A stretch of DNA of 64,000 nucleotides, taken from a bacterium. Lineage in GTDB: Bacteria; UBA10199; JAIBAG01. The DNA lies in assembly GCA_019695305.1 (NCBI GenBank), contig JAIBAG010000001.1, positions 18,774 to 82,773 on the forward strand, read 5' to 3'. This document shows positions 2,458 through 56,992 of this stretch, piece by piece. The notes under the pieces were generated by a model. The model was given only the letters and a program-made list of their open reading frames with translations, was not told the DNA's origin and searched no databases. How positions within the stretch are numbered: the stretch's first letter is position 1; each line of letters opens with the position of its first letter. The position numbers were made by a program, and so were the translations under genes.

Positions 2458-4803
2458 TTATCCTAATTTTCGTTTTAAGAAATAAATCCCCATAAGCGGC
2501 ATCCACAACATAACAAATGCCAAATTAAAACTGCTGTTAGCAGGTGCTAAACTACAACCACCACCGCTGCTGCCACCAGCTTTGTTGCTATCGCCAGGGT
2601 TTTGGCTATTGCCTGTATCGGTACCAGTTGGGCTGGTTTCGGGATCGGAGGTAGTTTCAGAGTCGTCTGATACTTCCGGCTCGTCAGACGGGTCGGATTC
2701 TTCGGAGATGTCCGATTCGTCCGATTCACCTGAAGTATCACCACTATCTACTTCTTCGTTATTAACCGTATCCACACAATCGGCCAAACCATCGCTATCA
2801 ACATCGCTAAAGCTTTCATCAATAGCGCCGTCGCCGTCGTTGTCTAAACCGTCACATTCTTCGGTGTCTACGCAATCGGCAACACCATCGGTATCGTTAT
2901 CTGAAAATCCTTCGTCAATAGTGCCATTGCCATCATTATCAAGTCCGTCGCACGTTTCTTCTTCGGCACAGTTCATAACGCCATCGCCGTCGGTATCACC
3001 TGTATCCAAACCTTCGTCATATTCACCGTTGCAATTGTTGTCTTCTCCGTCACAGGTTTCGGGAGAATCGGGTGTGAGTACGTTAATGTTATTGTCATCG
3101 CAGTCCTGATTATTAGTGACAAAATTGGGTGATGTTTTGCAGGTGTAAAATGATTCACCAGCTCCATAACCGTCGCTATCGCTATCCACATAATATTGTG
3201 TAGCAGCACAATTTAATTCGAATGCTCCTATGTCACATTTGGTATTGTTAGCGGGTATTGCAGTTCCAGCTTGATCGTAAGATAAAGGTAAGCCATCAAT
3301 ATTGGTGCATTGTGTATTTTCAGCTGCATCCAAGGCTAAACCGGCTATGGTAGGAAGATAGCCCGCTTTATAACCATTCAGTATAATTGGATCTACAGAT
3401 ACTTGAGCGTCATCGCTTACAAAAGTAGTTACATCTGTTTCGGTTGAGTACACCACATCGCTACCCACAACACTTAAGCCTACAATATGAATAATAGTAT
3501 CGGGATAAGAACTGGCGTAGTTATCCATATAAATTTCGTTAGTAGCGCTGTTGTTGTGATTGTTTTGATTAAAAATGTTGTGCTTAAAAATAGCGGCAGT
3601 TTCGGTGATGTCGGTAAAATATATTCCGCCACCTTGAGGATCGGTGCTCGTGGTTTCAACAGTATTGTTTACAATAGTGGAATACGAAATGGCTAATGGG
3701 GTATTACTATAAATACCACCGCCTTGAGGGTTGCCATCATTAAGCATAGATATGGCTTTGTTATCGATAATACTAATTTGATTTAAACTAACTTGGGCGA
3801 TTGAAATGTAGTCGCTTGGTTGACGATCGACAATATATAGCGCTCCGCCTTGGCTGGCCTGATTATTGGCAAAGTTTATTTGATTGGCATCTATATTTAA
3901 AGGTATGAGACAGGTGTTTACATCGAGGCAAGCTGTAGATTGAGTAAATGCAAAAGCACCACCATGCAAAGCCTTGTTATTGTTAAACTGGATTTGTCCG
4001 CCTAGTAGAGATGAGTTTTCGAGATTGATGGCGCCACCGTCGGTAGCGGATTCATTTCCATCAAATATCATTTTAGCAAGGAAAGTATAGCCAGTGTCTG
4101 CATAAATAGCGCCGCCGCCAAGTGCAGCTTTGTTGTTTTTAAAAATGTTATAGGCTGTTGGTATAGCGTCACTAATATTGGAAATTAAAAGACCTTTAGA
4201 TGACTTAATGGCACCGCCGGTTCCTGCAGTTGTATTGTTTTCAAACACGCAACCATTTAAGAGATTAATTGAGCCCTTGCCAAAAGTTGTGGCATTTAAA
4301 ACGATGGCGCCTCCACCAGAAAACGATGTTGTAGACGCGTTATTTAAAAATGAGGTGTGATTAAGTGTGATGGAAAAATCGCCTGTTATGCCAAGAACAC
4401 CGGCTGAGGTATCGGTAAAATTTTGAAAGGTCAAATTTTCAAAATTAACTTTTTTAGCGCTTGTCGTTGAAAAATTGCTGGTTAAGATATTGGAAAAGCG
4501 GCGGTTTGCGTTATTGGTTCCATCTATCACCGCTGGGTTTGTAGAAGTTCCTTTTATGGTGAGTTCGGCACGAATACTCATGCGTCCTAAATCGATTGAA
4601 TACGGACCTTCCTGATTAAGTTCGATAGTATCAAGATCAGCTGTTAGATTGGCCTTAAGTATAGCTTCGCGGAGAGAGCAATCGGTATCGCAGGCACCGT
4701 CATTTGTATCGGCTGTTTTAGTAACCATGATGGTTTCGGCCTGGGCTGCAAGTGAAAAAAAAGTGAGCGTTAAAAGTGCTAAAAGTTTAATTGTATGTTT
4801 CAT
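2458..4803 (-). CDS. Large secreted beta-helix repeat protein with MopE-like Cys/Asp repeats, an acidic Ser/Asp/Glu tail and a MYXO-CTERM-like C-terminal sorting signal
   Basis: Signal peptide MKHTIKLLALLTLTFFSLAAQA. The ATG at 4801-4803 is preferred over the upstream extension, and a GAGGAT Shine-Dalgarno sits 7 nt upstream. GGGAI/GGAL beta-helix repeats of the pectate-lyase/Pmp type are present. There are four CDG(E/L)DNDxNGxxDE repeats. The C-terminus is GGGCSLAP, then a hydrophobic stretch, then KRK. Confidence 0.7.
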   Translation of the reverse strand: MKHTIKLLALLTLTFFSLAAQAETIMVTKTADTNDGACDTDCSLREAILKANLTADLDTIELNQEGPYSIDLGRMSIRAELTIKGTSTNPAVIDGTNNANRRFSNILTSNFSTTSAKKVNFENLTFQNFTDTSAGVLGITGDFSITLNHTSFLNNASTTSFSGGGAIVLNATTFGKGSINLLNGCVFENNTTAGTGGAIKSSKGLLISNISDAIPTAYNIFKNNKAALGGGAIYADTGYTFLAKMIFDGNESATDGGAINLENSSLLGGQIQFNNNKALHGGAFAFTQSTACLDVNTCLIPLNIDANQINFANNQASQGGALYIVDRQPSDYISIAQVSLNQISIIDNKAISMLNDGNPQGGGIYSNTPLAISYSTIVNNTVETTSTDPQGGGIYFTDITETAAIFKHNIFNQNNHNNSATNEIYMDNYASSYPDTIIHIVGLSVVGSDVVYSTETDVTTFVSDDAQVSVDPIILNGYKAGYLPTIAGLALDAAENTQCTNIDGLPLSYDQAGTAIPANNTKCDIGAFELNCAATQYYVDSDSDGYGAGESFYTCKTSPNFVTNNQDCDDNNINVLTPDSPETCDGEDNNCNGEYDEGLDTGDTDGDGVMNCAEEETCDGLDNDGNGTIDEGFSDNDTDGVADCVDTEECDGLDNDGDGAIDESFSDVDSDGLADCVDTVNNEEVDSGDTSGESDESDISEESDPSDEPEVSDDSETTSDPETSPTGTDTGNSQNPGDSNKAGGSSGGGCSLAPANSSFNLAFVMLWMPLMGIYFLKRKLG

Positions 4804-4933
4804 ATTCGATATCCTCAAAAAATGTTCGTACACTATTATCGGTTTAACATCTAAATAAGTTGCCTGGTTGGCTTATTTTTTTTAAAAAAAATAAATTCCT
4901 ATAATAACTAAATTAAATCAATAAGTTATATAA

Positions 4934-8913: not shown

Positions 8914-9116
8914 ATATTAGATCTCCTGTGTATGCCGTATGTAGGAAAAAACCCCAAAATGGTCCACTTTTTTTTAAAACTATCCATTTTTTATTTGACG
9001 TAAACCCCAAATCTTAATATCCACCCTGTTCTGTATCCTATATTGGATATAATCTCTCCTCCGATGGTTTGGAAGATGGATTGGGCATATTGCCCGTATT
9101 ATTTAATGGAGTATCT

Positions 9117-9332
9117 ATGAAAACACGCGGTCGCGTAAAATGGTTTAACGATTCTAAAGGTTTTGGTTTTATCGAGCAGGACAATGGCCAGGATGTATTT
9201 GTTCATTATTCAGCCATTGGTGGTGACGGTTATAAATCCCTCCAAGAAGGTCAGGAAGTTGAGTTTGAACTTCAAACTGGTGCTAAGGGCCCTATGGCTC
9301 AAAACGTAACCAAAGTTGAAGCTAACGCTTAA
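9117..9332 (+). CDS. Cold-shock protein, CspA family
   Basis: KGFGFI and [11 protein letters not shown] motifs. ATG at 9117 with a GGAG Shine-Dalgarno 7 nt upstream. The 5' UTR is long. Confidence 0.9.
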
Positions 9333-9401
9333 TCTTTTAAACGTTTCTTAAAAATTGAGTTTAAAATTCCCGCTCTATAAGCGGCATGGTTTTTTGCGGC
9401 C

Positions 9402-11078
9402 TTATTCTGTCTCATCGGGGGCAATAAGGCCATAATCCCTTAGCCGTCTAAATAGCGTGGAACGGGCCATCCCTAAGGCTTCGGCGGCACGCGTGCGGTT
9501 ACCCTGCACTTCGCGCAGCACTTCCAAAATCTTCTGCTTTTCCACCAAGGCTACATGATCAGGGGGAGGAGTAAAACTGGAAGATGCAGGCTCGGGGGAC
9601 GCTACGCTTAATAGCTCAATATCCTGCGGCATAATTTGCGCCTGTGTGGCATATACCATACTGCGGCAAATAACATTGCGCAACTCGCGCACGTTGCCAG
9701 GCCATGGATAGCTAATAAGCTTGTCGCGCGCTTCAAACGATAGGGTTTTGCGATAAGATCCGGATTGTTTTGATAAAAAATGCTCGGCTAAAAGCAGCAC
9801 ATCTCCTACTCGCTCACGCAGTGGCGGCACAAAGAGTGGAATAACATGCAGGCGATAAAAGAGATCTTCTCTAAATTTTCCTTCTTTTACTTTTTCAGTT
9901 AAATTGCGGTGTGTAGCCGCCACAATACGCACATCTACTTTTATTTCTTCGGCACCCCCTACTCGGCGGATTGTGCCATTTTCCAAAACGCGCAAAAGCT
10001 TGGGCTGCAATTCTAACGGCAATTCGCCAATTTCATCCAAAAACAGGGTGCCGCCGTTTGCTTGTTCAAAGGCTCCCGTATGACGACTAATAGCCCCCGT
10101 AAAGGCTCCCTTTTCATGACCAAATAACTCGCTTTCAATCAAATTTGCCGAAATAGCACCGCAATTAAGGATAACATACGGTTTTTCACTGCGTGTAGAA
10201 AGACGATAAAGAGATTGTGCAATTAATTCCTTACCGGTACCCGATTCGCCCTGAATTAAAACGCTTAAATCGGTTGGGGCCACTTTTTGAATTTTTCCAA
10301 AAAGCACCTTCATAACAGAAGTAGTACCCACCATACCCATAAAAAAATCGTCGGTAACAGGCAAAATGGCTTCGGTTTGTTCTTTCCAGCGTATTGTAAG
10401 CTTGGTTTCACCAATACGGATAATATCGTCCGGTTTTAAACCAATATCACCCACGCGCGTATCATTTACATAAGTACCATTGGTTGATTTAAGATCGGTT
10501 AAAAAAATTCCAGAACTTGTAAATTTAAGTTCGCAATGTTTGCCCGATACGTAATCGTCTTTTAACAAAACATCCACACCCTCACGTGAGCCAATGGTAA
10601 TTTTATTTTTTAAAATTTTTACCTCGCGAACACTCCCGGCCTCGTCCAATACTAATAGAGGTTTTTCTACCAGTAATTGATTCCCCAAATCGGCAAGCTT
10701 AATAATTTTGGTGGGGGCTTCGGCCGTATGTGGTGTTAACTGGGTAGATAGACGGGTTGACACCTCCATGCGTAAATCTTCGTCATCTTGCGTGCGTGCT
10801 TCAAAAACAAATTCCCAGGCACCTGCTTTAATACTATCGCCATGATGAAGCATGGCTTCATCGCCAATAGATTTTTGATTAATAAAAATTTTTCCGCCGC
10901 TTTTATCTTTAACACGCGCACTATCGGCCGATAAAAAAAGGGTGAAATGATTTTTAGATAGCTCTTGGTCGTGCAGCGACAAATCACAATCGGGTGCACT
11001 ACCCACTTTAAAAATACCGGGAGGCAAATTAATTTTAAAAAGGGATTTAGCCTCTTTTTTAACGGATAAGCCTGGCAT
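9402..11078 (-). CDS. Sigma-54-dependent transcriptional activator with two N-terminal FHA domains
   Basis: AAA+ sigma-54 interaction domain (GESGTGKE, GAFTGA, ESELFGHEKGAFTGA), a C-terminal Fis-type HTH, and two FHA-like segments at the N-terminus. Confidence 0.85.
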   Translation of the reverse strand: MPGLSVKKEAKSLFKINLPPGIFKVGSAPDCDLSLHDQELSKNHFTLFLSADSARVKDKSGGKIFINQKSIGDEAMLHHGDSIKAGAWEFVFEARTQDDEDLRMEVSTRLSTQLTPHTAEAPTKIIKLADLGNQLLVEKPLLVLDEAGSVREVKILKNKITIGSREGVDVLLKDDYVSGKHCELKFTSSGIFLTDLKSTNGTYVNDTRVGDIGLKPDDIIRIGETKLTIRWKEQTEAILPVTDDFFMGMVGTTSVMKVLFGKIQKVAPTDLSVLIQGESGTGKELIAQSLYRLSTRSEKPYVILNCGAISANLIESELFGHEKGAFTGAISRHTGAFEQANGGTLFLDEIGELPLELQPKLLRVLENGTIRRVGGAEEIKVDVRIVAATHRNLTEKVKEGKFREDLFYRLHVIPLFVPPLRERVGDVLLLAEHFLSKQSGSYRKTLSFEARDKLISYPWPGNVRELRNVICRSMVYATQAQIMPQDIELLSVASPEPASSSFTPPPDHVALVEKQKILEVLREVQGNRTRAAEALGMARSTLFRRLRDYGLIAPDETE

Positions 11079-48988: not shown

Positions 48989-49534
48989 TTAACTTAGAAC
49001 ATCAGAAGCAAAATTTACTAAATGTAAATACCCTTTAAGGCCACCAAAATGAGGAAATTTTAGTTTCGTACCATGTTTATCTCTAGCATCAAGCTGAACC
49101 TGCCCATCGGGCGTATTTACAGTATAAATCGCTTTATTTCTGTTTGGATCTATATTCCAATAAACATCAGGCATTTTATGAGCATATGCCGATCGAATTA
49201 AAAAAATAATTTCACGAAGTGCATTTAAATCAGATGGGGTTTTTTCCCAATTTCGAAAACTACTTTTACCATGCCTAATTGAAAGGGCCTCGTCTACGGC
49301 AATAGTACAAGCGGCAAGCGATGCCATTAGTTGATTCATGACTGCCTTGTTCAATTCTTCTTGATTTATAATATCCCATTCAGGGACATCAAAAGTTACA
49401 TCATTCTGAATATTAAAAGTAACTTTGGGCTTAAATATATTAAAATCGATTTTGGCATTAAAACAACATACCACCAGTTTTACAGCAAAAGTAAACTGTT
49501 GTAATGCCCAATAAACACTTTCTTTTTCTGTCAT
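48989..49534 (-). CDS. Hypothetical protein of ~181 aa
   Basis: ORF only, with no motif recognised. Start taken at MTEKES (ATG at 49532-49534). Lies directly downstream of the dinD-like gene. Confidence 0.45.
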   Translation of the reverse strand: MTEKESVYWALQQFTFAVKLVVCCFNAKIDFNIFKPKVTFNIQNDVTFDVPEWDIINQEELNKAVMNQLMASLAACTIAVDEALSIRHGKSSFRNWEKTPSDLNALREIIFLIRSAYAHKMPDVYWNIDPNRNKAIYTVNTPDGQVQLDARDKHGTKLKFPHFGGLKGYLHLVNFASDVLS

Positions 49535-49622
49535 AATTTTTTGATGCCTTTCTACCACCCACAACATCCAGATCAAGCAAAAGCACATTTCAACGAATAT
49601 GAATTTACTCTTAATATAAACC

Positions 49623-50471
49623 TTAATTCTTCAATCTTTTCTCTTCTTTTTTCTCTCTAACTTTTTTCCTTTGTACTTTCTTAATACTGTCAGGGGTTGG
49701 CAAGTGCTCTGGCATGGTACCACCTAATTCTTTTATGGTTTCCCTCACCTTTTGGCCCACATTATAGTGGGTTTGATTAGCTTGAAATTTATTTTGATGC
49801 GGTTCTCGCTTGAGTTTTTCTTCTGTTTGGGTAGCACGAAATAAATTAGCAGCTAATTCTGTACTTCCCATATGATCCAAAATTTTTTGACTTTTCTTTA
49901 AGTTTTTTTTCGAATGAATATCCTTCGCTCCTAAACCCCCATATAGTCCTTTGTAACCAAAATCCTGAAAAATAGCATAATCAAGAGGTTCTCTTACTCC
50001 CGCTTTTTTAGCTACCTCGGCAAGGTGAATATTATGCTTGGAAATTTCATCACGCAAAAGTAAACGTTTTTCATTTTCACGATCTTGCTCCGAAAGCTCC
50101 TGTTTCCTGGTTTGAATTGCAAAATAGGTTTGGCCTTTGGCTACTATTTCTTTGGAGGGATCAGCATTTTGGACAATCAAATAACAAGCATACCGCGATA
50201 ACAAAACAGTGGGCATCACCCTATTTGCTCCTGACCCGAGAACCACATTTTCTGTGGTATCAATAAAATGCTGTTCGGCGATATTACCACTATTGATACA
50301 GGCCAACTTTGCTTTATCGATAACGGCTTGAAAATTTCTATACTCGAAATATTCAAGTATCTTTCCTAAATCACGAGACGACCAATATTCTTTTCCATTG
50401 GGATCCATTTTTTTGGCTATTTCAAAAATATTTTTGGAACCGACCATCAAATCATCTTTTTTCTCTTCCAT
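49623..50471 (-). CDS. dinD: DNA-damage-inducible protein D (DinD) family, with Bro-N-like N-terminal domain
   Basis: N-terminal DPNGKEYWSSRDLGKILEY...RNFQAVIDKAKLACINSG...HF pattern matches the DinD family as recalled. Lys/Glu-rich C-terminal tail. Confidence 0.65.
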   Translation of the reverse strand: MEEKKDDLMVGSKNIFEIAKKMDPNGKEYWSSRDLGKILEYFEYRNFQAVIDKAKLACINSGNIAEQHFIDTTENVVLGSGANRVMPTVLLSRYACYLIVQNADPSKEIVAKGQTYFAIQTRKQELSEQDRENEKRLLLRDEISKHNIHLAEVAKKAGVREPLDYAIFQDFGYKGLYGGLGAKDIHSKKNLKKSQKILDHMGSTELAANLFRATQTEEKLKREPHQNKFQANQTHYNVGQKVRETIKELGGTMPEHLPTPDSIKKVQRKKVREKKEEKRLKN

Positions 50472-50579
50472 ATGATAACCTCTTGTTTTTTATACAAAAC
50501 CATTTCGTGCATACCCACGAGATGGTCCATATCACTCCATAAAGAGTTCACTTTTCAAGAGAAAATATCTTAGGATCAC

Positions 50580-50597
50580 TTTGCCAAAGCTGGCAAA
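50580..50597. promoter_or_regulatory. Palindromic candidate operator TTTGCC-N6-GGCAAA, site 1, upstream of the dinD-like gene
   Basis: TTTGCCAAAGCTGGCAAA followed by ATGATCC. A second copy with the same architecture lies 117 bp away. Confidence 0.4.
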
Positions 50598-50696
50598 ATG
50601 ATCCAAGCAACCTAAAGTAATTTTCATAGGTGTAAAAATTACTAAATAATCTTTATTTATCAATAATTTTTGATCATGCCTGGCCAAAAGCACCAT

Positions 50697-50714
50697 TTTG
50701 CCGGCATTGGCAAA
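50697..50714. promoter_or_regulatory. Palindromic candidate operator TTTGCC-N6-GGCAAA, site 2
   Basis: TTTGCCGGCATTGGCAAA followed by ATGGTAT. The extended motif TTTGCC-N5-TGGCAAAATG is shared with site 1. Confidence 0.4.
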
Positions 50715-50873
50715 ATGGTATGGAGCGGTTACATCTCTATACAGTATCTGGCACCGAGCTATTCTGAATAAAAATCGATTCTAACATTGAATCGAGAGTT
50801 AGATATTTGTCTGGTAATTTTAATAAATTGTAATTAGGACATGCTTACAAAATTCTGAAATAAATATAGTGAA

Positions 50874-51227
50874 CTATAAACCCCATCTCCGAAGACAATT
50901 ATTATAATTTCGTTTTGCTTCTTGATAATCACTATCTGTGATAGTTTTTTTCATAAATATACTATATTTAGATTTTCGTTCGGGTGATAATTCATCATAT
51001 TCAAAGCCAGATATATATCGAGATAATGAAGAATCATCCTCATATATTTGTAATAATCGATAATCAATATTTTTTTGAATTACCCAATTAATATACCCAT
51101 CATACTCGTGCCTTTGACAATAAGATCGAATGCCCATTGGGCGTAATTGAAACCAAATAAATAATAAAAAGCCGATAATAGATCCTATAACTATTTTATT
51201 TTTTTTAGTCATATAAATATAGTGCAA
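50874..51227 (-). CDS. Hypothetical small membrane-anchored protein of 117 aa
   Basis: N-terminal TM helix (IVIGSIIGFLLFIWF) then a soluble domain. AT-rich codon usage. Confidence 0.4.
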   Translation of the reverse strand: MHYIYMTKKNKIVIGSIIGFLLFIWFQLRPMGIRSYCQRHEYDGYINWVIQKNIDYRLLQIYEDDSSLSRYISGFEYDELSPERKSKYSIFMKKTITDSDYQEAKRNYNNCLRRWGL

Positions 51228-51378
51228 AACGTGTTTACAAAACCATAAAAAATAAACAAGTTTTTTGATCTGACAGGTCTTAATAAAGCTTTATAACTCC
51301 TCCATAACAGTTTCATGTCTATTTCTGGAACTGTTCCCGTTCACAATACAAGTAAAAATTAAAAAATATGCAGTAACT

Positions 51379-52029
51379 TTATTGTTGGAAGCCTAATAGC
51401 CATAGCGCCACAAAATTATTAAAAAAGTGGCAAAGGATACAGAGCCACAAGTTTTGTTCTTTAGCGTACAAGCGGCTGATGTAAAACCCCAACACTAAAA
51501 GTCCGGGTAAAAACCAGGGATTTAAATGCGCTACGCCAAATACAATGGTTGCTGTTGCTACCGCAAAAGACGCACTCTGTTTTTTTAAGAGCGCATTGAG
51601 ATAAAAACCTCTAAAGAAAAATTCTTCGCACACAGCAGGCATCAACGCATAAAACGCCACATCACGCACGTTACTAAAACTAGCATCCTGCGGCATCATA
51701 TTTAAAATCCATTCGGGGATAGGAAAAAAATAATCGGTAAGGGTGACGAGTGACATGGCTATAAACGAAACCGCCAGCATTTGCAGAAGTATTTTAAAAA
51801 TTAATTTGAGAGAAGGAAAACTTAAAGATGGATCCTCCGCCTTAGGCGGACCGGAATGACGATGGGTGATTATATAAACAACCCCAGGAATTAAAAAAAA
51901 GGCAATTTGCGCCACATATAAATAATCCATCCCCAATACCTGTCCGGTGAGATGGTAAAGAATAATAAGAATAATGGCTAAAAAGTGGAGCATGGATCCT
52001 TTCTTGATTTTCCTTCCACAACCTGCCAA
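51379..52029 (-). CDS. CPBP family intramembrane glutamic endopeptidase (CAAX protease / bacteriocin self-immunity type)
   Basis: Motif 1 EEFFFRG, motif 2 FGVAHL and motif 3 HFFNN across multiple TM helices. Confidence 0.75.
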   Translation of the reverse strand: MAGCGRKIKKGSMLHFLAIILIILYHLTGQVLGMDYLYVAQIAFFLIPGVVYIITHRHSGPPKAEDPSLSFPSLKLIFKILLQMLAVSFIAMSLVTLTDYFFPIPEWILNMMPQDASFSNVRDVAFYALMPAVCEEFFFRGFYLNALLKKQSASFAVATATIVFGVAHLNPWFLPGLLVLGFYISRLYAKEQNLWLCILCHFFNNFVALWLLGFQQ

Positions 52030-53838: not shown

Positions 53839-53911
53839 TCCGGGCTCGTCCAACGGCAGGACATTTGACTCTGACTCAAAGAATCAAGGTTCGAATCCTT
53901 GGCCCGGATCA
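53839..53911 (+). tRNA. tRNA-Gln (anticodon CUG)
   Basis: Cloverleaf folded by hand: acceptor TCCGGGC/GCCCGGA, D-arm GTCC-AACGGCA-GGAC, anticodon arm TTTGA-CTCTGAC-TCAAA (anticodon CTG), and T-arm CAAGG-TTCGAAT-CCTTG. Confidence 0.85.
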
Positions 53912-56654: not shown

Positions 56655-56875
56655 TGGTTGTAAGACCTAGTAACCATAAAGCCGAGCGATGCTTGTCTCT
56701 ATGGAACTAGCTCTAAAGGAAGTCCGGTGTAATTCCGGCACGGTCCCGCCGCTGTAAGCTGGGGGTCTTTTTAAGATCAACCTCTGTGCAAAGCAAGTCA
56801 CTGTCCCGAACTATCGGGGTGGGAAGACCGCACAAGAGGCCAGCAAGTCAGAATACCAGCCAATCCATTCAAAAT
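56655..56875 (+). ncRNA. Cobalamin (B12) riboswitch
   Basis: Core AAAGGAAGTCCGGTGTAATTCCGGCACGGTCCCGCCGCTGTAAG fits the consensus GGGAA..GGTG.AA.TCC..GC.G.CCCGCCACTGT. A downstream AGTCACTG...GGGAAG and a B12-box-like AGTCAGAATACCAGCC are present. A sigma-70-like TTGACA lies at 56618. The element sits in the 5' leader of the lipoprotein gene at 56993. Confidence 0.8.
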
Positions 56876-56992
56876 TATTTGGATGTGCAGTGCGAGCGAC
56901 ACTTTGTTTTGGTTCCTTCCTTTTGGAATTTTTCCCCAAGACATCGTCTGTTCTCGCTTGTTGAAAATATAAAAATTCAACAGGAGAATCCC

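Follow-up and report, generated by a model that had tools for sequence, protein, structure and literature searches.

Upstream of the dinD gene (DNA damage-inducible protein D) in a 64,000-nt stretch of bacterial DNA, we found three palindromic units, which we call H1, H3 and H0. The stretch, hereafter the window, comes from a genome of the GTDB lineage UBA10199 (GenBank assembly GCA_019695305.1, contig JAIBAG010000001.1, positions 18,774 to 82,773), and window coordinates count from its first letter. Comparison of sequences makes us highly confident that the three units are copies of a previously undescribed, conserved hairpin-forming element of 28–32 nt with an 11–14-bp stem, for which we use the name dinD hairpin. 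The outer arms are conserved, (G)ACCAT(T/C)T...A(A/G)ATGGT(C), the inner arm is variable but self-complementary, and the central 4–6 nt form the loop. The copies make up one family with a covarying stem, they are distributed in a complementary way inside and outside dinD, and they are independent of the LexA box. The element is not specific to one lineage and occurs from E. coli to phage-borne dinD. Full-text literature searches turned up no description of it, and Rfam 15 gave no significant match over 50400–50950 or over dinD genes with perfect intragenic palindromes.

Three palindromic units upstream of dinD

A preliminary description of the window, made from the sequence alone, had noted two copies of an 18-bp palindrome, TTTGCC-N6-GGCAAA, upstream of a dinD-like gene. 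Both are present, TTTGCCAAAGCTGGCAAA at 50580–50597 and TTTGCCGGCATTGGCAAA at 50697–50714, and they lie 109–243 bp before the start of the gene (ATG at 50471, minus strand). They are the only two exact matches in the 64-kb window, and allowing one mismatch added no further site. The exact motif is expected by chance at a mean of 0.01 per window (100 dinucleotide shuffles), none of the 100 shuffles held two or more, and a chance origin of the pair is negligible. What had been overlooked is that the arms are longer, that there is a third copy, H0, and that the palindrome is linked in frame to the coding sequence of dinD. Both 18-bp copies are the cores of longer inverted repeats, H1 and H3. The gene and the units are as follows.

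49623–50471, minus strand: dinD (DNA damage-inducible protein D; Bro-N N-domain), from family profiles
50499–50526, no strand assigned: H0, ACCATTTCGTG-catacc-CACGAGATGGT, reading ACCATCTCGTG-GGTATG-CACGAAATGGT on the minus strand
50573–50604, no strand assigned: H1, GGATCAcTTTGCC-aaagct-GGCAAAaTGATCC, which holds the copy at 50580–50597
50692–50719, no strand assigned: H3, ACCATTTTGCC-ggcatt-GGCAAAATGGT, 11 perfect bp and a 6-nt loop, which holds the copy at 50697–50714

The dinD-like gene is a genuine dinD, scoring 380 bits against NCBIfam NF008573 (cut-off 242), and it also matches Pfam Bro-N and PADLOC PDC-S13 (370 bits). The single mismatch of H1 is a U-G pair on the dinD-sense strand, which gives a 14-bp stem. 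H0 ends 27 nt before the dinD ATG and shares with H3 the ACCAT/ATGGT ends and the 11-6-11 geometry, with a different inner stem; these two are the only exact matches to ACCAT-N18-ATGGT in the window. The inner arms are CGTG/CACG in H0 versus TGCC/GGCA in H1 and H3, and every copy is self-complementary. Pattern scans of the remaining 63.6 kb found no further copies of the unit. The centers of H3 and H1 are 117 bp apart, or about 11 helical turns, and the two are in the same frame.

When folded as RNA of the dinD-sense strand, H3 gave −17.4 kcal/mol (z −4.3), H1 −22.1 kcal/mol (z −7.3) and H0 −14.2 kcal/mol (z −3.8). All three local hairpins persisted when the whole 259-nt region was folded (z −6.4).

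The palindrome inside dinD genes

Read in frame, the palindrome gives HFAxxGKM, a conserved motif in the N-domain of DinD proteins. The 30-bp consensus is GAC CAT TTT GCC GAC GTC GGC AAA ATG GTC, which encodes DHFADVGKMV, and among the viral-contig matches listed, seven lie inside a dinD homologue, exactly at this motif. Across 120 DinD proteins the motif takes the form D-H-F-x4-x5-x6-x7-(K/E)-M-V, with x4 and x7 paired as G-T, V-H, V-N, P-R, A-R, A-G or E-L, and each of these residue pairs corresponds to reverse-complementary codons.

For a test at the DNA level we used 80 dinD loci from metagenomes. In nearly every one of them, the 30 nt of the motif come close to a perfect palindrome (10–15 of the 15 positions complementary), and 11 loci are perfect. 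An alignment of 70 distinct intragenic copies (A2) has 92.1% of its stem positions paired, and nine of the 13 pairs have changes on both sides (117 cells). Its covariation score was 0.344, compared with 0.139 ± 0.010 in shuffles, none of which reached it (0 of 500), and the signal was lost when we slid the pairing register. Compensatory pairs that exceed both the shuffled and the slid controls are what a conserved structured cis element should have. From these comparisons we would rate the unit, in kind, as such an element or as a palindromic repeat. The central four bases are non-complementary, so it is a stem-loop and not a full palindrome.

The covariation reaches the codons. Across the stem, the Phe codons TTT and TTC face Lys AAA and Glu GAA, respectively, Leu CTC faces Glu GAG and Ile ATC faces Asp GAT, while the outer codon pair covaries as GAC with GTC, GAT with ATC and AAC with GTT. 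Since the Phe codons pair across the stem with Lys or Glu codons, a synonymous change of Phe accompanies a charge-reversing switch between Lys and Glu. We read this as selection that probably acts on the nucleic acid and not on the protein. In the AlphaFold model of DinD (mean predicted local distance difference test score, pLDDT, of 80), the motif encoded by the palindrome is the first strand of a long beta-hairpin in the N-domain (residues 69–91).

A leader copy where the intragenic copy has decayed

The dinD gene of the window still carries a trace of the intragenic unit.

50244–50273, minus strand: decayed intragenic unit, CAG CAT TTT ATT GAT ACC ACA GAA AAT GTG, encoding QHFIDTTENV, with 7 of 13 stem pairs left

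The intragenic palindrome has also decayed, to 3–6 pairs, in the close relatives at L001, L003, L125, L126, L127, L209 and L210 (72–83% protein identity). In these seven and in the window, an H0-type hairpin lies exactly 27 nt upstream of the dinD ATG, and in the relatives the stretch between hairpin and ATG is gapless, A/T-rich and partly conserved, and includes the Shine-Dalgarno sequence. The ninth case, L184, belongs to a different DinD lineage. Its intragenic copy has decayed to EYFEVFSESV, and ACCATCTCGTG-GAGATG-CACGAGATGGT lies 36 nt upstream of its start, while its nearest relatives all have an intact intragenic palindrome. Because L184 belongs to a different lineage, decay together with a leader copy arose at least twice. 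In total, an ACCAT...ATGGT leader hairpin is present at 9 of 9 loci with a decayed intragenic copy versus 0 of 79 with an intact one. Four of the intact-copy loci do have upstream hairpins; these are unrelated sequences, and one of them is the LexA box of E. coli. The complementarity of internal and external copies argues that a single copy close to the 5' part of dinD is required.

The genomic surroundings of the leader copies are unrelated: L126 and L127 are in type I restriction-modification operons, L003 is in a helicase/methylase island, L001 lies downstream of rho, and at L125 and L210 the neighbor is the duplicated 3' end of an Rsm22-like gene. From locus to locus, similarity sets in exactly at the hairpin. 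In the alignment of extragenic copies (A3, which includes H0, H1, H3 and the L127 copy), 94.2% of positions are paired and five pairs have changed on both sides. L127 has a second unit 2 nt after the dinD stop, so its dinD is flanked by units. None of the other loci has an equivalent of H1 or H3; in L209 a shorter palindrome, TTTTG/CAAAA, occupies a similar position.

Between H0 and the start codon of the window dinD is its ribosome-binding sequence, and at the same position the orthologues have AAGGAG or GGGAG.

50479–50484, minus strand: Shine-Dalgarno sequence AAGAGG of dinD, by direct reading

We rejected several other explanations of this leader region. A pseudogene remnant does not account for it, as 50472–50900 translated and compared with 120 DinD proteins had no similarity past the 9-residue units. 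The 54-aa open reading frame (ORF) at 50532–50696, which starts inside H3, has no ribosome-binding site and no support. An upstream ORF that starts from the ATG of the hairpin is not conserved, its length and stop position varying among orthologues. A promoter at the conserved TATAAA/TAAAT after H0 would be too near the Shine-Dalgarno sequence, and the transcript would start inside it.

Two further observations concern the surroundings of dinD in other loci. At L125, a 65-nt direct repeat (80% identical; 2779–2843 and 3877–3941) flanks a 1.1-kb segment in which there is nothing but the hairpin and dinD. It is a second copy of the 3' end of the Rsm22-like gene that lies upstream. No recombinase is seen nearby, and the arrangement looks like the insertion footprint of a minimal dinD module. 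At L137 and L155, which have kept the intragenic unit, a different perfect palindrome, TTAAACCCGTCGAATTCGACGGGTTTAG or a variant of it, lies about 33 nt before dinD and may be an operator or terminator that is specific to a lineage.

The palindromes are almost certainly not LexA boxes

dinD is treated as an SOS gene (PMC2577331, PMC6590174), and one of the readings offered in the preliminary description is that the palindromes are a lineage-specific LexA (SOS) box. They do resemble LexA sites in being palindromic and in preceding a gene under SOS control in E. coli. We consider this reading extremely improbable, and E. coli dinD (L208) is the most direct reason. This gene carries the palindrome inside its ORF at 755–784 (GACCATTTCGAGGAG/ATCCTCGATATGGTC, 12 of 13 stem pairs), and it has a canonical CTGT-N8-ACAG LexA box at 520–535, upstream of its ATG at 581. 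With a separate LexA box at the same gene, the palindrome is not the SOS box. Nor is it confined to a lineage: the same sequence is conserved from E. coli to phage dinD, across phyla whose LexA boxes differ. It has 11-bp arms and measures 28–32 bp, well beyond the length of any known LexA site, and most dinD orthologues of the window clade are in restriction-modification operons with an H0 copy only. The unit therefore differs from LexA boxes in length, sequence and distribution, and coexists with a true one.

The preliminary description had already said that the motif does not match known LexA boxes, and this holds. None of ten published motif types matches exactly in 50472–50900, upstream of the window dinD, and sites with one mismatch are confined to AT-rich stretches outside H1 and H3. 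The window ORFs that we scanned include no recA, lexA, uvrA or other recognizable SOS gene. What survives of the earlier interpretation is a non-random, dinD-linked, non-LexA sequence, and the idea of an SOS box finds no support. The tisAB-dinD antisense site (PMC2577331) maps to the 3' end of the gene and has no relation to the unit.

Copies in viral contigs and other genomes

The class to which H1 and H3 belong, CAYTTTGCC-N6-GGCAAARTG, occurs in at least 120 viral contigs in highly diverse contexts; one phage group of about 39 loci dominates the matches listed. A control pattern with the 3' arm reversed instead of complemented had no match in viral contigs. The arms of H3 are identical to the consensus of at least 120 viral-contig units. 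The H0 class, ACCATYTCG-N10-CGARATGGT, also has at least 120 viral matches, and nine of the matches listed are inside dinD homologues. In E. coli, the unit matches only within dinD, in 2,809 of 5,426 complete genomes, with no match in the rest at this sensitivity. The collections of cultured phages and E. coli gave few matches with uninformative annotation.

Gene positions in the viral loci come from crude ORF calls. With that in mind, the viral copies are mostly intergenic, and 47 of 58 de-replicated intergenic copies lie between co-directional genes; 24 are at most 60 nt after a stop codon, and seven are at most 60 nt before a start codon.

The spacing of the outer arms is fixed. At 116 sites the gap from CATTTY to RAAATG is 12, and the seven sites with other spacers of 8–16 nt are not self-complementary. 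About 1 Mb of array-type loci held further CATTTY-N12-RAAATG sites, of which 11 of 13 have a complementary inner stem. In tandem arrays, neighboring units have different yet self-complementary inner stems (GCC/GGC, CGTG/CACG, GTT/AAC). Copies in one locus that differ in the inner stem and remain self-complementary indicate that the fold is selected rather than base-specific contacts of a single protein.

The units are also found as parts of other structures. In two type II hammerhead ribozymes (RF02276; L083 4952–5036, minus strand, 62 bits, and L106 10108–10192, minus strand, 54 bits), the unit is the tip of stem III, and at L015 and L025 it tops longer terminator-like stems. We also note that stem III of L083 and L106 is lengthened by a 19-nt insertion that completes the unit, and that both ribozymes are in P1-like viral contigs in which C4 antisense RNA is also present. 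Arrays of 3–5 units in about 39 related viral contigs (L027 8250–8480, L044 1890–2060, L093 120–250, L102, and L114 6000–6150) lie in a small ORF (MSSTTYDHFANPGKMY...) beside a lysis module and a tRNA, where many of the contigs end, and the junctions of the array units form alternative hairpins, GGTGAC-N5-GTCACC. At L211, L257, L292 and relatives, an H0-class unit precedes the start of a Bacteroidota-type tyrosine integrase gene by 23–25 nt and follows a conserved 189-aa ORF at a distance of 61 nt. The Ruminococcus phage phiRg519T2 has a degenerate unit in the region upstream of its integrase (L331, about 2511–2538).

The abundance in viral contigs raises the question of whether the units are a selfish or recombination-related palindrome, comparable to attC, REP sequences or the ends of IS200/IS605, with H1 and H3 as by-products beside a mobile dinD cassette and no regulatory role. 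Several observations point this way: the at least 120 viral contigs for each of two classes against none for the control, the frequent position of copies near contig ends, tRNA genes or integrase genes, the tandem arrays, and a conserved outer and covarying inner stem as in attC. dinD itself is demonstrably mobile (the 65-nt repeats around a 1.1-kb insertion at L125, the units on both sides at L127), and the window dinD is in a low-GC islet, with 27–37% GC versus 41–45% in the flanks. We nevertheless find this distinctly unlikely. The window has no copies beyond the three, the unit is confined to the inside of dinD in E. coli genomes, and the internal and external distribution argues that dinD needs one copy. 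Neither the boundaries of the L125 insertion nor the breakpoints in mosaic dinD genes fall at the unit. There is no recombinase or transposase near the window copies and no integrase among the neighboring ORFs, and the attC and dif consensus sequences do not fit (see below).

The predicted promoter and possible DNA-binding proteins

Consensus scanning found one sigma-70-like site directed at dinD.

50567–50596, minus strand: candidate sigma-70-like promoter, TTGCCA-18 nt-TAAGAT, 9 of 12 matches in a consensus scan
50765–50795, minus strand: terminator-like hairpin and T-run that closes the upstream gene at 50874–51227, fold −7.4 kcal/mol

In this predicted promoter the −35 element and spacer lie inside H1 and the −10 element abuts the 3' end of H1. 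It is a consensus match, and promoter-like sites in the region are not above the shuffled expectation. The terminator-like hairpin, if it works as such, groups H3, H1 and H0 with dinD and separates them from the upstream gene.

An arrangement of this kind invites the reading that the units are double-stranded operators of a symmetric dimer, possibly DinD itself, that represses or road-blocks dinD. H1 would then be the primary operator over the −35 element, H3 and H0 would be auxiliary, as with lac O1/O2/O3 and gal OE/OI, and the intragenic copy would be an internal operator. Several points speak for it. The outer half-sites are conserved and their gap of 12 never changes; the predicted promoter has its −35 and spacer under H1; H3 and H1 are about 11 helical turns apart; mismatches have no strand bias; and the flexible position relative to the gene is seen with road-block operators. 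A symmetric change in both half-sites is also expected of diverging pairs of homodimer and operator. DinD is predicted to bind DNA, and the best Foldseek matches of its model are DdrC of Deinococcus radiodurans (7qvb, 7udi, 8u0g), which is a dimer, at E about 1e-4 and a template modeling (TM) score of 0.36–0.45. It is possible, judging from the model, that DinD and DdrC, two damage-inducible DNA-binding proteins, are distantly related.

Even so, we think operators of this type unlikely. The inner arms differ within one locus, with three classes in one phage array, and still are self-complementary. A protein that contacts the inner bases would not tolerate their variation, and one that ignores them would not keep their symmetry, which counts against an operator. 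Most viral copies have no local DinD-like gene, dinD loci in which a copy is present inside the gene lack a further one by the promoter, and no regulator gene adjoins dinD in the window (profile scans of the ORFs).

A related idea is that the palindrome is the cognate ligand of DinD, a DdrC-like dimer and candidate anti-phage protein (PDC-S13), which would recognize it in the folded state, as a hairpin or a cruciform, at a site within its own gene and thereby regulate itself in a self-referential way. We regard this as improbable. If it were true, the hundreds of phage copies would be targets for sensing or attacking invading DNA, or decoys that titrate DinD.

Comparison with known element classes

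We compared the unit with several known classes. It does not fit an intrinsic terminator, in which a U-tract directly after a GC-containing hairpin would be conserved along with it: the bases after H0 are TTTTG in the window, whereas orthologues have TCTGC, TGTCC or TTCAT there, H1 has no T-run after it, H3 has only GCTTTTGG, and a T-run is downstream of 13 of 47 viral intergenic copies. The 11-6-11 geometry of H0 and H3 recalls Xer/dif sites; conservation is in the outer and not the inner part, and the dif consensus (ATAA-N6-TTAT) is absent. An operator of a homodimer would have inverted half-sites at fixed spacing that overlap a promoter; the spacing is fixed here, and H1 alone overlaps the promoter, itself a prediction.

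With the operators lac O2 in lacZ, gal OI in galE and purR O2, the unit shares a palindrome tied to a gene in upstream, leader or intragenic position, constraint on codons and multiple copies. Those operators are conserved base by base for one repressor, whereas the inner arms of the unit vary freely but symmetrically.

Integron attC sites are like the unit in being imperfect palindromes recognized as a fold, with conserved outer repeats, a variable complementary inner stem and mobile cassettes. They are, however, 57–141 bp long, with RYYYAAC/GTTRRRY and extrahelical bases, at the 3' side of cassettes, and depend on IntI; the unit has none of these properties. The unit has outer arms ACCATTT/AAATGGT, is 28–32 nt long and is usually inside an ORF.

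Repetitive extragenic palindromic (REP) sequences and bacterial interspersed mosaic elements (BIME), together with Rickettsia palindromic elements (RPE), are similar as short hairpin palindromes between co-directional genes, often just after stop codons, and RPEs can be translated within proteins. REPs are species-specific and have hundreds of copies, unlike the unit, whose sequence is found across phyla and in phages, which has no copies elsewhere in the window, and which is single-copy in E. coli, inside dinD. RPEs are in-frame insertions of 100–150 bp, against 28–32 nt for the unit.

Stabilizer or insulator stem-loops of 5'-UTRs, such as the hairpin in the ompA leader, and the cis elements inside viral coding sequences also have a stem-loop near the ribosome-binding site or in the ORF, with compensatory changes that can be non-synonymous. 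Unlike the unit, they do not recur with one and the same sequence in unrelated genomes and phages.

Other candidates were dropped. A sigma-54 promoter (GG-N10-GC) has the wrong spacing in all copies. A hammerhead or other ribozyme hidden around the window copies has neither core motifs nor an Rfam match, and the loops do not fit the pattern of ANTAR-type hexaloops. Among known symmetric sites, parS, Noc NBS, KorB OB, matS, CIRCE, NrdR and CRP do not fit.

How the hairpin may act

The reading that we prefer is that the unit works as a folded nucleic acid with an effect in cis on dinD. Taken by itself this mode of action is tentative, and we would put it a little below even; for the whole explanation, identity of the element and mode of action combined, we see the chances as balanced. 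The dinD hairpin normally lies within the dinD ORF, where it dictates D-H-F-x-x-x-x-(K/E)-M-V. In the clade of the window, the intragenic copy has decayed and the leader copy H0 stands in for it, while H1 and H3 are further copies, from the class that is most common in phage DNA. H0 may be a leader stem-loop that controls or insulates the expression of dinD, a gene that moves between operons. Placed at the promoter or shortly before it, H1 and H3 may block read-through from the upstream gene or occlude the −35 element. Candidates for the active form are RNA, single-stranded DNA or a cruciform.

A number of points weigh against this. H0 has a C-A mismatch on the dinD-sense strand. More generally, mismatches in intragenic copies are of G-U type 24 times versus 14 of A-C type (13 versus 5 when the outermost pair is left out), and in intergenic viral copies oriented by transcription the numbers are 4 versus 7. 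There is thus no consistent strand bias of the kind that would demonstrate folding of the sense strand as RNA. If the promoter inside H1 is real, then H1 and H3 are outside the dinD mRNA and a role as RNA is left for H0 only. It is not obvious how a hairpin about 200 nt into the ORF and one in the leader could be equivalent in the control of translation. The contrast between nine and 79 loci amounts to only about two evolutionary events. The viral copies have no local link to DinD-like genes, which accompany 7–11 per 120 loci listed, with the unit nearly always inside the gene; most are not beside such a gene, and so the unit has a life independent of dinD.

Other features of the window and mosaic dinD genes

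The low-GC islet covers window positions 49000–51400 and holds dinD and two ORFs without a family match, at 48989–49588 (199 aa) and 50874–51227 (117 aa, with a predicted membrane helix). The islet is probably an insertion gained by horizontal transfer, and 3 kb away, at 53839–53909, there is a tRNA gene. Elsewhere in the window, Rfam matches are a cspA thermoregulator (8963–9349, plus strand, 83 bits) and a cobalamin riboswitch (56670–56878, plus strand, 64 bits). A sigma-54-dependent activator with two FHA domains is encoded at 9402–11078 (minus strand) and a Chlamydia-PMP-repeat protein at 2458–4833; both are consistent with the "Deltaproteobacteria"-type labels of the metagenome-assembled genomes that hold the nearest dinD relatives.

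Some dinD genes are mosaic. For L171 versus L200 and L134 versus L177, the N-terminal ~65 residues are 47–56% identical and the rest 91–95%, with breakpoints in the conserved LSRYACYL-QNxDP region, so that the N-domain has apparently been swapped as a module. We considered the palindrome as a recombination hot-spot and rejected this, as the L171/L200 breakpoints (47% identity on the N-terminal side, 95% on the C-terminal side) are about 100–150 nt downstream of it. Three DinD homologues of 398–435 aa (P0019, P0020, P0025) have two tandem N-domains with one D-H-F...M-V motif each.

Significance

dinD has been an SOS reporter for decades, and its function is poorly understood. Selection for the palindrome on this gene appears strong enough to set amino acids, both in the choice of Lys or Glu and in the Ala-Gly, Val-His and Glu-Leu pairs. 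It is unusual for a family-wide palindrome to write part of a protein, to move to the leader when the coding copy decays, and to be widely dispersed in phages. For annotation, it is a warning that palindromes upstream of genes with SOS names are not LexA boxes by default. The dinD hairpin offers a clear example of how a nucleic-acid structure shapes a protein motif, and it provides a handle on the regulation of dinD that can be tested in E. coli K-12.

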